Below, piece by piece: positions 1,616 to 11,425 of a stretch of 11,425 nt of DNA. The DNA is taken from IMG/VR virus record IMGVR_UViG_2695420523_000016. The stretch is one strand, 5' to 3'. The notes below the pieces were generated by a model, which was not told the origin of the DNA, ran no database searches, and saw nothing but the letters and a program-made list of their open reading frames with translations. This DNA comes from a virus (lineage: Duplodnaviria > Heunggongvirae > Uroviricota > Caudoviricetes). Numbering within the stretch: the first letter of the stretch is position 1; every line of letters begins with the position of its first letter. The position numbers and the translations under genes were made by a program.

Positions 1616-2326
1616 CTAAAATGTTATAAATAGTTTTCTCAAATCGCGGTCGTTTGAGAATATATAGTTCTTCGCTTCAAATAGATTATGAGCGTTTTTT
1701 ACAGTTAGAGGAATGATGCTTTTGAAGGAGCTATATGATTTTTGTCTTACATGTTCGAATTCTGACATTTTTAAGCCACGCAGGGTCATTATTATAGTTC
1801 TAATGGATTGAATTATAAGTTCTATGATATTGATTAAGCCAAAATGTATTTTATCGAACTCATGAACGGGCTTGTATCTGAATAACTTCATAGTGTTAAG
1901 GTCGTTTGCTAAAAGCTGAGTTGTGACTTCTAATTCAGTTATTGTATCAAGCAAATATGATTTCATTGATTCGAGAACCGAGTCCTTAAGATGATGGTCA
2001 TAGCCGTTGATTCTAAATTGATAATTTTTAAGTTTAAACTCCAATTCCTCTACGGTATTGAAAATTTTAGGGTAGTGTTGAGTTATTATTTGTTTTTGTA
2101 TTGTGTATGCGTCATCCCTATATTTCTCTTTTTGCCAGTTCGAATATACATAGCCAGCAAAGATGAGAGTGATGACGCTAGAGCCAGCACTTAACAAATC
2201 AGATACGCTCCCCCATTCGAAACTATCAGAACTAGAAAAGAGTACTTTAATGAAAGCTAATATCGCTACCCATAGAAGTACTATGACGGTAGCAACTAAC
2301 AATTTGTTCCATCCTTTAACTCTCAC
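1616..2326 (-). CDS. Hypothetical inner-membrane protein (two N-terminal TM helices, cytoplasmic helical domain of about 170 aa)
   Basis: 236-aa ORF with a GTG start at 2324-2326 and a weak SD. Hydrophobic segments LLVATVIVLLWVAILAFIKVLF and SSVITLIFAGYVY. No family recognised. Confidence 0.5.
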   Translation of the reverse strand: MRVKGWNKLLVATVIVLLWVAILAFIKVLFSSSDSFEWGSVSDLLSAGSSVITLIFAGYVYSNWQKEKYRDDAYTIQKQIITQHYPKIFNTVEELEFKLKNYQFRINGYDHHLKDSVLESMKSYLLDTITELEVTTQLLANDLNTMKLFRYKPVHEFDKIHFGLINIIELIIQSIRTIIMTLRGLKMSEFEHVRQKSYSSFKSIIPLTVKNAHNLFEAKNYIFSNDRDLRKLFITF

Positions 2327-2558: not shown

Positions 2559-3287
2559 ATGAACAGAAAGCAATTCATCCAGTCACACGGAGCTACTTGC
2601 AGTAACTGGACGTGGAGTTGGTCATTTGTTAACCATGAAAAGAAGATGGTCATCTTTGGGTCATGGGATGTTGAGAGTGAGCATGAGCGATCTGTAATAC
2701 TCCGTGAGAAATGGGAATACAACTCAAACAACAAAAAACAACCGGGATACACCCAGGCTCTGGAACACATCAGGTTAGTCCATGAAGGCTACGAACTTTA
2801 CACCTTCAATATGGTTTTCGCAGAACATCCGGATAATCCCGAAATTGCAGTAATCAAAGATTTTGAGCGTAAATTAAACAAGCGATATCTTCGTAAAGAA
2901 GGCGTTGTTTGGTATGCAGACTTCTTACCTAATCCATTCCCCGATGAAATTCCTTCAGGAGAGAGTTTTGTTGAAGGTGCAAAGACTCAAGTAACAGTGA
3001 ACTACTACGAACGCGATCCAAAGGCCAGACAAGCCTGCATCCAGCATCACGGTACTACCTGTAAATGCTGTGGCTTCGATTTTGAGAAGGTCTATGGTAC
3101 ACATGGCCGTGGGTTCATTCATGTACATCACATCAAGCCGCTTCATACGATTGGGGAAAACTATGTAGTAAACCCCGTAACAGATATGATCCCATTATGT
3201 CCAAACTGCCATGCAATGGTACATCGTGGAAGCGGTGTACTTCCAATTGCAGACTTGAAAAAAAAAATGACATTATGGAGCGAGTAA
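2559..3287 (+). CDS. HNH-family nuclease: unassigned N-terminal domain of about 150 aa fused to a C-terminal HNH (McrA-like) motif
   Basis: 242-aa ORF with SD AGGAGG at 2549-2554. The C-terminal region CKCCGFDFEKVYGTHGRGFIHVHHIKPLHTIGENYVVNPVTDMIPLCPNCHAMVH shows the Cys pair, HVHH, and CPNCH-x3-H pattern of HNH nucleases. The N-terminal region (FIQSHGATCSNWTWSWSFVNHEKK...) matches no signature I can name. Confidence 0.85.
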   Translation: MNRKQFIQSHGATCSNWTWSWSFVNHEKKMVIFGSWDVESEHERSVILREKWEYNSNNKKQPGYTQALEHIRLVHEGYELYTFNMVFAEHPDNPEIAVIKDFERKLNKRYLRKEGVVWYADFLPNPFPDEIPSGESFVEGAKTQVTVNYYERDPKARQACIQHHGTTCKCCGFDFEKVYGTHGRGFIHVHHIKPLHTIGENYVVNPVTDMIPLCPNCHAMVHRGSGVLPIADLKKKMTLWSE

Positions 3288-4079
3288 ATGGATTTATCAC
3301 AATTGAGTAACGTCGAATTGATGCAACTGAATCAGTTGACGCTTGATGAGTTAGAACGACGAGAGGTTATCAGAACCAGAAACAATCCTATCAGTGAGTA
3401 CACTGAATGGCTGATTGCGGAAAAGATGCAAATGGTACTGGCTGCACCTAGTACTAAAGGGTATGACGCTACAACGATTGATGATCGAAAAATTCAGATT
3501 AAGTCTCGTAAGAATAATTTAAAAAACCGAACGTTAATTCTTGGAATTATCAGAAATTATGATCTGAACCAATTCGATGAACTCATTGCCGTAATATATA
3601 ACCATGATTTCTCAATTCGTTATGCTATATCCATACCACATGGATTAGTGAAGGAATATGGTTTTTATAATGAGCACCAGAATGGTTACACTCTAAGAAT
3701 CAGCAATTTATTACTTAATGATCCACGTGTAACAGATATCATTGAATTCATTGATCCAGACACTGAACGTTCAAAGGAAGAGATCACGGTGAAGCCAGAT
3801 TCAAACACTATTCGGGATGTACAGACAATAGGAATGCAGACATTTGTTGAGTACTATCAATATGTTGAAGGTGGAATGGACACAACTGATCTTGTTGAAA
3901 AGATGATAACTGACCATCCAGAGTGGAAGGAAAGTACTGCAAGAACAAAGGCATCTTCAATGCGAAGAGTATTCAAGAATGGCGACAACATTGAGGTACT
4001 AAAAATCATCTATAAGTCGAATCACCCAGCAATAACGCATGAGATTAAGAGTAAACTGATGACGCTTTGGGATAAATGA
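3288..4079 (+). CDS. Hypothetical protein, translationally coupled partner of the HNH nuclease; possible PD-(D/E)xK-like N-terminal region
   Basis: 263-aa ORF. Its ATG at 3288-3290 directly abuts the upstream TAA at 3285-3287, with GGAG about 9 nt upstream. The segment EYTEWLIAEKM...GYDATTIDDRKIQIKSR has an E...D...QxK spacing compatible with a restriction-endonuclease-like fold. No Walker A or methyltransferase motifs. Confidence 0.7.
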   Translation: MDLSQLSNVELMQLNQLTLDELERREVIRTRNNPISEYTEWLIAEKMQMVLAAPSTKGYDATTIDDRKIQIKSRKNNLKNRTLILGIIRNYDLNQFDELIAVIYNHDFSIRYAISIPHGLVKEYGFYNEHQNGYTLRISNLLLNDPRVTDIIEFIDPDTERSKEEITVKPDSNTIRDVQTIGMQTFVEYYQYVEGGMDTTDLVEKMITDHPEWKESTARTKASSMRRVFKNGDNIEVLKIIYKSNHPAITHEIKSKLMTLWDK

Positions 4080-4125
4080 ACAAAGTTTGGGTTATATTTT
4101 TGACACAAAAAGATATAATTGTAGT

Positions 4126-4175
4126 ACTTCCACCATTCGCATTTGGGTAGGTTTGTTTGGGCGATTGGTGGAAGT
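4126..4175. terminator. Imperfect 15-bp inverted repeat (14 of 15 pairing) with a 20-nt loop between convergent genes; possible terminator or protein-binding site
   Basis: 4126-4140 acttccaccattcgc pairs with 4161-4175 gcgattggtggaagt, with one mismatch. No clean T-run on the plus strand; a modest T-rich tract follows on the minus strand. Confidence 0.25.
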
Positions 4176-4178
4176 GTA

Positions 4179-4490
4179 TCAAAACGGTAATTCTCCCTGC
4201 TCACAAAACCATCCATCTTTATCATGCTGCTTATAGACTGCATTCTCACTACTCAGATATTGCAAACCTTCCAGTACTGAACATAGCTGCGTTTCCAGTA
4301 TGAACACGAAGCAAACACGCTCAATCGTGCCTAACCAGTAAGTACCTTGCTGGTGCTGGAAGAATACGCGATCCCCATATACAAACTTATCAAGGCTGTA
4401 TCCCCAATAGCAGACAGTAGCCCACTTGCCTAAATGTTCAAACTGCTGTGTACCGCTTTTGATTGCCGGATCAAAACCATTCTTGCCCAT
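4179..4490 (-). CDS. Hypothetical protein (103 aa)
   Basis: ORF in the track; GAGGG about 8 nt upstream of the ATG on the minus strand. By eye this stretch has higher GC than the flanking genes. No family recognised. Confidence 0.4.
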   Translation of the reverse strand: MGKNGFDPAIKSGTQQFEHLGKWATVCYWGYSLDKFVYGDRVFFQHQQGTYWLGTIERVCFVFILETQLCSVLEGLQYLSSENAVYKQHDKDGWFCEQGELPF

Positions 4491-4670: not shown

Positions 4671-5180
4671 ATGAAACTCGAACATTTGGCAATTCCGATC
4701 ACTTCATTGAATGGAAAATTACTCGGCGTTGAGCTGGAAACACGTGTACTTATAGATGGTTGCCGGGTGTTGGTTGGTATAGGTAAGGAAAGTGAATACA
4801 TACGTCACGTGGTCTATCAGAACCAGCTAAGAATGATTCAGGGCAAAGCCGCATGGTTTAAAGAAAAGGGGCTGTTGTGCGTGCTCAGTACTGGCAGGGG
4901 TACACGGTATGACGATCTACCATTCATACGGTACATGGCTGCTGAACCACTGCTAACCGACGGTTACGACGTAATACGACTAAATAGACGGTTCACTGAA
5001 GAACACATCGAAAGGCTGATTTTCCCGGTACTCATCAAGAACATCATGCAGTACTGCGACAAGGTGATCGTACAAGTCACTGGCAATAACAATCACAGGA
5101 TTCTACGAGAGTCGGGGATATGGGCAGTACAGGGAGAGTACAGGCCAATCCGCTTTGAACAATGCGAACAACTTCTATAG
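4671..5180 (+). CDS. Minimal or degenerate EAL-like protein (c-di-GMP phosphodiesterase-like fold, probably non-catalytic)
   Basis: 169-aa ORF with GAGAG upstream. The N-terminal PI-x-SLNGKLLGVELETR resembles the EAL-domain start motif (QPI...G.L.G.EALLR). The C-terminal VIVQVTGNNNHRILRESGIWAVQGEYRPI resembles the AEGVE...QGY motif with Glu replaced by Gln. The central DDFGTG region is absent. Confidence 0.5.
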   Translation: MKLEHLAIPITSLNGKLLGVELETRVLIDGCRVLVGIGKESEYIRHVVYQNQLRMIQGKAAWFKEKGLLCVLSTGRGTRYDDLPFIRYMAAEPLLTDGYDVIRLNRRFTEEHIERLIFPVLIKNIMQYCDKVIVQVTGNNNHRILRESGIWAVQGEYRPIRFEQCEQLL

Positions 5181-5691: not shown

Positions 5692-6153
5692 ATGAAAATT
5701 ACAGAAGAGTTAATTTATAAAACATTCAGTAATACCTTTGAAGGAACAATGATATTATTAAAGATTTCAATTCTTAGTACACTAATAACTTTATTCATTC
5801 TTATTAATGGTGCAGATCCTGGGGCGATAGAATCCATAAAGGTGGTCTTTGCTACACTTGCATTGTATGCGATGTCTGTAGGGATTGGCTTAGGTGCAAT
5901 GTTGCTTTCACCAATTACCTATAAAGTGGCTGATTGTTTCGAACTTAAAGCAAATAGCCCCTTATGCAAAGTGATTAGTATCGTATATGGGATGGTGTAT
6001 TTTGCTACAACATATGTAATAGCTACTTATTTGACTTATCTGATTACTGATAGTTATAGGACAGGAAAAGAATTAGTAGCTGTTTACGTAATTAGTACTG
6101 TGACAATATCTTTTATCCAAGCACGTCGTCTCTATAAACTCATTGGTCAATAA
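5692..6153 (+). CDS. Hypothetical integral membrane protein (about four TM helices)
   Basis: 153-aa ORF, AT-rich, with four hydrophobic segments (for example ILLKISILSTLITLFILI and LALYAMSVGIGLGAMLL). No family recognised. Confidence 0.5.
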   Translation: MKITEELIYKTFSNTFEGTMILLKISILSTLITLFILINGADPGAIESIKVVFATLALYAMSVGIGLGAMLLSPITYKVADCFELKANSPLCKVISIVYGMVYFATTYVIATYLTYLITDSYRTGKELVAVYVISTVTISFIQARRLYKLIGQ

Positions 6154-6182
6154 ACTGGCCGTGGTTATTGATGATTTAGTAA

Positions 6183-6202
6183 AGGCCCACAGAAGCGGGC
6201 CT
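6183..6202. terminator. GC-rich hairpin (aggccc / gggcct, 8-nt loop) between convergent genes; candidate terminator, more plausibly for the minus-strand gene
   Basis: 6183-6188 aggccc pairs with 6197-6202 gggcct. On the minus strand it is followed by a modest T-rich tract; no T-run on the plus strand. Confidence 0.3.
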
Positions 6203-6219
6203 GTTAATAATATATCAAA

Positions 6220-6579
6220 TTAAAATTCATCTAAAGTACTTCTTTTCTCGTCTATTACATTAAACTCTAAAAGTCCATCATTAACCTCAAAAGTAACGGT
6301 GGTTGAATATGAATCATCAATATCCATATCCTTACACATGTTATAAATGAAGTAGCTAATGCTATAATGCAAAACGTAGATATTTTCGTCTAAGTATTCA
6401 ATATCATCTATAATGAAATAGTCAGTAGATTGTGCTCTTGAATCAATGAAATCTAAATCAATATCCAAAATCTTTTTTAAAGTTATGTCACTATGATTTT
6501 TATCTAAGTAGTCATAGAGAATTTTTTCAGCTTCTTTCCCGTGGGTTGGAAGTGTTAAATTGAATGGATAGGTAGTCAT
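6220..6579 (-). CDS. Strongly acidic small protein (119 aa) in the moron position upstream of terS, on the opposite strand
   Basis: ORF in the track with AAGG upstream. By hand count about 26 Asp+Glu against about 9 Lys+Arg. No family recognised. Confidence 0.5.
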   Translation of the reverse strand: MTTYPFNLTLPTHGKEAEKILYDYLDKNHSDITLKKILDIDLDFIDSRAQSTDYFIIDDIEYLDENIYVLHYSISYFIYNMCKDMDIDDSYSTTVTFEVNDGLLEFNVIDEKRSTLDEF

Positions 6580-6753
6580 TACATAAACCTTTAGTCAAAT
6601 AATTAATGGTTAACTTTATAAGTACTAAAATAGCATGATGAATTAAAATATTCAATGAAAAGAGAAGGTACTCCCAACACAACTACCAATACGCGAGTTT
6701 TCGGCACCGAATGCTTTCATTCGTATGTGACATTTTAGATGTACACAAAACAT

Positions 6754-9193
<2,440 letters not shown>

Positions 9194-9205: not shown

Positions 9206-11425
<2,220 letters not shown>

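Follow-up and report, generated by a model that had tools for sequence, protein, structure and literature searches.

The closest described relatives of the protein analysed here are modification-dependent Type IIM endonucleases of the BisI family, of which Pan13I and Eco15I each cleave modified DNA as single purified proteins (PMC4926085, PMC11347163). Pan13I was active on GCNGC carrying 3-4 m5C (Xu et al., 2016, Table 2, PMC4926085), and the family includes specificity variants such as Esp638I, with GCNNGC (PMC4926085, PMC8281217). According to PMC11347163, crystal structures of BisI-family enzymes contain the canonical alpha1-beta1-beta2-beta3 PD-(D/E)XK core and an extra N-terminal dimerisation helix; the 'PD' of the motif is represented by AD or WD and the '(D/E)XK' by QIK or QVK, and a helix Glu completes the site. 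The same paper gives PvuII, a Type IIP PD-(D/E)XK enzyme with a similar dimer arrangement, as the nearest structural relative of the family that is not modification-dependent. PvuII is set apart by its description, in that it cuts unmodified CAGCTG, has a cognate methyltransferase and has no methyl-binding motif.

The stretch of DNA analysed here (the window) is 11,425 nucleotides long and comes from a virus of the Caudoviricetes (IMG/VR record IMGVR_UViG_2695420523_000016). On sequence grounds its ORF at 3288-4079 is a member of the known BisI family, with the architecture of Eco15I and with Pan13I nearest to it, and not a new kind of system. Pan13I from Pantoea ananatis PA13 (WP_014606222.1; P0032, in the P0017 cluster) shares 69% identity with the window protein over 153 aa with no gaps and is, by this comparison, its closest characterised relative. 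The two share the catalytic tetrad as well as I84, G86 and H130-Q131, and the genes of the 90%-identity cluster of Pan13I lie directly downstream of an HNH gene (84% identical to that of the window) in a similar prophage hotspot; unlike the window protein, Pan13I is only 157 aa long and has no C-terminal domain. Eco15I from E. coli 541-15 (PDB 8q5m and 8q5o, N-terminal domain) has the same two-domain architecture, and its C-terminal domain of ~110 aa is acidic (pI ~5.6), like that of the window protein. Across both domains, identity between the window protein and Eco15I-type proteins is 32%, and Eco15I differs from the window protein in its length (~290 aa), its longer N-terminus and linker, its Q/S/V variants at three recognition positions and its solitary genes. 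BisI and NhoI share with it the PD-(D/E)XK core with 'xD...QxK', the helix Glu and the Arg and His residues of the methyl pocket, but are more distant and lack the C-terminal domain.

The features of the locus are as follows.

2559-3287, + strand: upstream HNH gene, 242 aa, encoding a putative Type IV modification-dependent endonuclease
2559-2972 (residues ~1-138 of the HNH protein), + strand: N-terminal domain with an SRA-like fold predicted by structure prediction
Residues ~145-226 of the HNH protein, + strand: McrA-type HNH nuclease domain, from Pfam HNH and the EcoKMcrA alignment
3277-3290, + strand: gene junction, with a GGAG ribosome-binding site (3277-3280), the TAA of the HNH gene (3285-3287) and the ATG of the BisI-like gene (3288-3290)
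3288-4079, + strand: BisI-like ORF, 263 aa plus a TGA stop, ATG start; homologue of BisI-family (Eco15I/Pan13I-type) Type IIM endonucleases
3288-3752, + strand: nuclease and DNA-recognition domain of the BisI family, residues 1-155
3405-3503, + strand: catalytic codons E40 (3405-3407), D60 (3465-3467), Q70 (3495-3497) and K72 (3501-3503)
3753-4076, + strand: C-terminal accessory domain, residues 156-263, homologous to Eco15I_Ctd

The nuclease domain and its recognition residues

The ORF at 3288-4079 was confirmed in the ORF listing, and the peptide that a sequence-only reading of this DNA had quoted from it, EYTEWLIAEKMQMVLAAPSTKGYDATTIDDRKIQIKSR, corresponds to residues 37-74. In HMMER searches of PDB sequences, residues 1-155 matched Eco15I_Ntd (PDB 8q5m) with E=1.6e-32 in a gap-free alignment, and NhoI (PDB 8q5n) with E=6.9e-19. 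Supportively, the PADLOC model mREase_II PDLC03212, for Type II methyl-directed restriction enzymes, matched residues 1-154 with 3.4e-61. Pfam DUF6998 gave 24.1 bits, slightly under its 27-bit gathering cutoff; the E. coli orthologues are named DUF6998 in RefSeq, and no mention of DUF6998 was found in the literature searched. From the gap-free alignment of residues 3-155 to the solved structures, we infer that the window protein has the alpha-beta-beta-beta core, whose absence the sequence-only reading had named as a ground for refutation, together with the N-terminal dimerisation helix.

The sequence-only reading had proposed a PD-(D/E)XK-like second nuclease from an E...D...QxK arrangement, and this proposal was borne out by the BisI-family homology and by the near invariance of the helix Glu, the D, the Q and the K. 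The residues it had picked out proved to be the catalytic residues of the family: its helix Glu is E40 (with E37 and E45 as alternatives), the D of its GYD is D60, and its QIK is Q70-I71-K72. E40 and D60...QIK align with the helix glutamate and with the AD...QIK or WD...QVK catalytic motifs of Eco15I and NhoI, and mutation of the equivalent catalytic residues abolished the activity of Eco15I, as reported in PMC11347163. The bare pattern, by contrast, is at chance level and was rejected as evidence by itself, since 91% of 2000 shuffles of the protein contained the loose motif E-x(10-30)-D-x(8-20)-[DEQN]-x-K, on average 4 times; it is through the homology to Eco15I and NhoI that the arrangement gains significance. 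Conservation of the candidate residues, the lack of which had been named beforehand as a ground for dropping the proposal, was found in 129 of 132 homologues for E40 and in 131 of 132 for each of D60, Q70 and K72. The alternative of a regulator, which had been left beside that of a nuclease, found no support for this protein, in which the catalytic residues are all intact and whose near relatives are proven nucleases. No match to a methyltransferase family was obtained among the window ORFs scanned, as expected for modification-dependent enzymes.

The residues of NhoI that contact DNA or the methyl groups, N42, S65, R84, R101 and H139, align with N32, S55, R74, R89 and H130 of the window protein, and among the 132 homologues these were conserved in 129, 128, 131, 131 and 124, respectively. 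Three other positions, which contact methyl groups or the paired guanine, are changed relative to NhoI (Q96 to I84, S98 to G86 and V140 to Q131), so that the window protein carries I84, G86 and Q131 where enzymes of the Eco15I/NhoI type carry Q, S and V. The published internal-methyl motif, (H/R)(V/I/T/M), does not include Q131, which is present in 40 of the 132 homologues, among them Pan13I. Because of these deviations from the Eco15I/NhoI type, the fine specificity could differ; I84, G86 and Q131 are nevertheless common to the window protein and the active enzyme Pan13I, and a Pan13I-like specificity is therefore expected, with some reserve. The substrate proposed for the window protein is extrapolated from an enzyme of 69% identity.

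The C-terminal helical domain

About 170 residues of the protein had been regarded in the sequence-only reading as unassignable by eye, and these can now be assigned to the remainder of the BisI-type nuclease domain (to about residue 155) and to a C-terminal helical domain of the Eco15I type (residues 156-263). This domain comprises 108 residues with a pI of 5.6 and was predicted by structure prediction to be a six-helix bundle, the model being all-helical; no Pfam model covers residues 156-263. [quoted passage not shown] For Eco15I, PMC11347163 describes the C-terminal domain as dispensable for cleavage and modification sensing, as not binding DNA, as acidic and as of 'function unknown'.

When the C-terminal-domain profile was run against 1.84 billion representative proteins, 957 clusters (at 50% identity) were matched, with proteins P0256-P0402 among the matches. 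Many of the matches were only 90-105 aa long, and one of these, P0257, was a longer gene cut off by the end of its contig; others were fusions in which the domain lay at either end or in tandem. The partner domains found in 55 fusion proteins included HEPN_Swt1, HSDR_N_2, NOV_C, DUF559, PDDEXK_3, HNH, HNH_2, MUG113, T5orf172, MIT_C (PLD-like), a HigB-like toxin (RelE/HigB-type), DUF6998 and UbiE-type methyltransferases; HSDR_N_2, NOV_C and DUF559 we take to be PD-(D/E)XK-type families, and MUG113 and T5orf172 presumably belong to the GIY-YIG group. The C-terminal domain thus looks like a promiscuous accessory module of nuclease effectors, and our guess would be that it is regulatory or a protein-protein adaptor.

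Short homologues that seemed to stand alone were of several kinds. One (L118) turned out to be a BisI-like gene truncated by the end of its contig, and another lay on a contig of 938 bp. In L119, a stand-alone homologue of 100 aa (4001-4303) directly follows hsdM-hsdS-hsdR of a Type I R-M system and precedes a 90-aa ScoMcrA_N-like ORF. A scan of viral sequences with a second alignment (A2) retrieved close relatives only.

Two other identities of the domain were considered and rejected. In earlier papers the Eco15I C-terminus was said to resemble 'putative HNH endonucleases' (PMC4926085, PMC8281217). The domain of the window protein has no Cys/His motif and no Pfam HNH match, and its model is all-helical; the older wording probably goes back to proteins in which a homologue of the domain is fused to an HNH domain. 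A role as a module for interaction with the HNH partner was likewise set aside, given that the Pan13I clade has the HNH gene without the domain and the Eco15I clade the domain without the HNH gene.

The HNH partner and the pairing in prophages

The protein encoded upstream matched Pfam HNH with 28.0 bits against a cutoff of 21.4 bits, and its HNH domain aligned best with those of EcoKMcrA and ScoMcrA, with Cys and His residues that are invariant in 31 homologues. Its family is large (4351 matches of ~250 aa in many phyla) and is often labelled mcrA by JGI. The N-terminal half is highly conserved and contains an invariant GATCxNWxWSWSF motif, and no sequence-level match of this domain to Pfam SRA, Pfam EVE or TagI was found. 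This motif of its own distinguishes the partner from the SRA-HNH Type IV enzymes (TagI, ScoA3IV and the SRA domain of ScoMcrA) and from EcoKMcrA. The HNH partner, whose N-terminal domain has a predicted fold similar to that of SRA readers of modified cytosine, probably also targets modified DNA. A packaging HNH protein or a homing endonuclease was set aside in view of the length of 242 aa, the conserved reader-like N-terminus, the McrA-type HNH domain and a distance of 3.5 kb from terS. YenY4I was also discarded as a relative of the partner, being an unrelated 600-aa PD-(D/E)XK protein (PMC6765204).

In the sequence of the junction, the HNH stop codon abuts the ATG of the BisI-like gene with zero spacer, and the GGAG Shine-Dalgarno sequence lies 7 nt 5' of this ATG, within the HNH gene. 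Because of this arrangement, the two genes are likely co-transcribed and may be translationally coupled. The junction was similarly tight in seven relatives (L001, L002, L003, L008, L044, L046 and L047), in which 3-6 nt separate the aligned gene ends. The GC content drops across the junction, being 42.9% for the HNH gene and 37.1% for the BisI-like gene, and this step counts in favour of the independence of the two. Promoters and terminators were sought on the + strand around the cassette, and no convincing one was found.

The pair was found in E. coli AREA_C483, in a prophage of the same type with 95% DNA identity, and in IMG/VR contigs, in one of which (L044) both proteins are 100% identical to those of the window. 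It was also found in nine other E. coli genomes, at ~82.5% DNA identity, in an integrase-bearing island near ffs that carries a type III restriction subunit as well, and in the metagenomic or NCBI contigs L003 and L004; in L008-L011, an HNH gene precedes genes of the Pan13I cluster. Among the pairs, the HNH/BisN identities to the window were 96/96, 90/87, 88/86, 84/71 and 72/68%. In L012, L013 and L055 an unrelated gene is inserted between the two, and in L121 a BisI-like domain 75% identical to that of the window is accompanied, ~200 nt apart, by an HNH partner of only 45% identity, a combination that hints at a selected linkage and leaves room for cooperation. No description of the recurrent HNH/BisI-like pairing was found in the literature searched.

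Each gene was also found frequently without the other, so that the co-occurrence expected of an obligate two-gene system was not observed. The BisI-like gene occurs with no HNH gene in L022 (96% identical), L023 and L120, in all Eco15I-type loci and in the distant short forms; the family alignment retrieved 22 GTDB genome loci, none of which has an HNH gene within 4 kb, and no HNH neighbour was seen in L014-L021 or in 13 Eco15I-type genome loci. Reciprocally, the BisI-like gene was absent from 27 of the 31 IMG/VR contigs that carry a full-length HNH partner, among them L045, whose HNH protein is 98% identical to that of the window, and in these HNH-only viral contigs other cargo genes follow the HNH gene. 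The sequence-only reading had called a second nuclease coupled to an HNH nuclease unusual, which holds in so far as the pairing is optional on both sides and fails in so far as it recurs in one enterobacterial clade. As each gene often occurs alone, and as Pan13I and Eco15I cut DNA alone, two independent nucleases are the best reading of the pair.

L022, from Scandinavium lactucae, is a natural deletion or replacement of the HNH partner. Of the HNH gene, no more than the final 22 codons survive (3933-4000) in front of the 96%-identical BisI-like gene, and the DNA upstream of this remnant contains an unrelated 159-aa ORF, a ResIII-like helicase and a NUMOD4/HNH_3 homing-type endonuclease.

The prophage that carries the cassette has a lambda-like terminase, and the cassette is located in its variable region, with the integration module (serine recombinase) on one side and terS, terL and the portal gene on the other. 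Relatives have DarTG, EAL-domain genes or Uzume (UzuA) in this region, and the best reading of the cassette is that of an ordinary, neatly stacked anti-phage cassette in a prophage defence hotspot. This hotspot shuffles a small set of cassettes. Two ORFs of the window, 113-727 (204 aa) and 801-1268 (155 aa), have no family match and each contain, by eye, a hydrophobic, apparently membrane-spanning stretch; their homologues lie directly 3' of the HNH gene in L045, L048, L055, L060, L061 and L063 and of the BisI-like gene in L121. The 236-aa ORF at 1616-2326 (- strand) has a hydrophobic N-terminal stretch, a weak PADLOC match to Csm6 (2.7e-4) and no Pfam family, and may be another defence cargo gene. 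The 169-aa ORF at 4671-5180 weakly matches the C-terminal end of the EAL c-di-GMP phosphodiesterase model PRK11596.1 (NCBIfam, 1.9e-6), and full EAL-domain genes occupy the same hotspot in L005 and L012.

L005 also encodes, at 6001-6810, a 269-aa homologue (P0026) that is 41% identical and has both domains; in it E is replaced by L, D by N and K by L, and Q is kept. P0026 has no HNH neighbour and lies in the same hotspot directly upstream of a UzuA homologue at 6872-7678 (PADLOC, 2.6e-51). In E. coli AREA_C483 (L001), an IS3 fragment and a group II intron (ltrA) at 9514-13090 are inserted ~10 nt before the stop of the BisI-like gene, which swaps its last codons and lengthens the ORF to 286 aa.

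In the window itself, the GpA-type large terminase is split into the overlapping ORFs 7285-7809 and 7778-9193, with the break at position 134 of the GpA_ATPase profile, and in relatives the terminase is one gene of ~623 aa (L005); the frameshift implies either a defective prophage or a sequencing error. An incomplete IS1 transposase gene (DDE_Tnp_IS1, 1.2e-44) lies at the window end on the - strand (11176-11421), with only its C-terminal 81 residues inside the window; it abuts or overlaps the portal gene (9721-11241) at the 3' end of the latter, so that IS1 appears to interrupt the prophage.

Proposed mechanism, alternatives and significance

The ORF at 3288-4079 most probably encodes a BisI-family Type IIM endonuclease of the Pan13I/Eco15I kind that acts in parallel with an independent HNH nuclease, and we hold this explanation with good confidence on the basis of homology, catalytic-residue conservation, architecture and gene-neighbourhood statistics; the substrate, the dimerisation, the defence in vivo and the independence of the two enzymes we infer. 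After the solved homologues, the N-terminal domain would homodimerise and bind double-stranded GCNGC with several 5-methylated or 5-hydroxymethylated cytosines. By alignment, the methyl groups would be sensed without base flipping in a pocket formed by R74, R89 and H130, with N32 and S55 making groove contacts. Both strands would be cut inside the site, with one metal ion held by D60 and Q70 and with E40 and K72 completing the PD-(D/E)XK centre, and no partner methyltransferase would be required. The C-terminal helical domain would serve as an accessory module, one that in Eco15I is not needed for cleavage. Working in parallel, the two enzymes would most likely allow the prophage to exclude a wider variety of phages or plasmids with modified cytosines.

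A different role for the pairing would be that of an obligate or cooperative two-nuclease system, in which the proteins form a complex or act sequentially, one of them, for instance, sensing and nicking the DNA and the other finishing the break, and in which neither defends alone. The abutting stop and ATG, with the Shine-Dalgarno sequence inside the upstream gene, fit such a system, as do the retention of the pair across divergence (from 96/96 to 72/68% HNH/BisN identity), its presence in two different mobile contexts, and the HNH protein of a different lineage (45%) in L121, which suggests repeated or selected association. It is nonetheless decidedly unlikely: the BisI-like gene occurs alone in L022, L023, L120 and the whole Eco15I clade and the HNH gene alone in 27 of 31 viral contigs, an unrelated gene separates the pair in L012 and L055, the presence of the C-terminal domain does not track the HNH gene, and Pan13I, although natively encoded behind an HNH gene, is active as a lone purified protein (PMC4926085), as is Eco15I.

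We also regard it as unlikely that the same fold and chemistry serve another target, be it a different cytosine modification, a different number of modified bases or a variant site comparable to the GCNNGC of Esp638I. The specificity variants known in the BisI family (PMC4926085, PMC8281217) and the differences of I84, G86 and Q131 from NhoI and Eco15I at methyl or guanine contact positions speak for this; the same three substitutions are, however, present in Pan13I, which is active on GCNGC with 3-4 m5C and aligns at 69% identity with no gaps. Least of all is to be expected a catalytically silent DNA binder or a regulator of the HNH nuclease, such as a specificity or anti-toxin-like subunit, which we consider highly improbable. 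The protein retains the whole catalytic tetrad, each residue of which is conserved in 129-131 of 132 homologues, and the close relatives are proven nucleases; non-catalytic relatives do exist, as seen in P0026 (41% identical, with the same architecture), whose tetrad positions read L, N, Q, L, three of them changed, but this silent homologue has no HNH neighbour. The C-terminal domain is the other point that such a regulator would accommodate.

Beside the preferred explanation of two parallel nucleases, it is conceivable, if rather doubtful, that the C-terminal domain gates or targets nuclease effectors in vivo, for example by binding a phage or host protein, or that the HNH pairing amounts to real cooperation, or both. 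If true, the cassette would be more than two independent restriction enzymes. The recurrent HNH pairing and the widespread Eco15I-type C-terminal domain are accordingly the points of remaining interest, and the role of this domain, together with whether the HNH linkage gives more than additive protection, are questions that have now been made testable.

For the family, the analysis turns 'DUF6998 domain-containing' or 'hypothetical' proteins of E. coli, Enterobacter, Pantoea and related prophages into putative BisI-family endonucleases with named catalytic residues. For the prophage, the locus represents the stacking of two enzymes that both probably attack cytosine-modified DNA, and such stacking would hinder T-even-like or Xp12-like phages from escaping by a change of modification.
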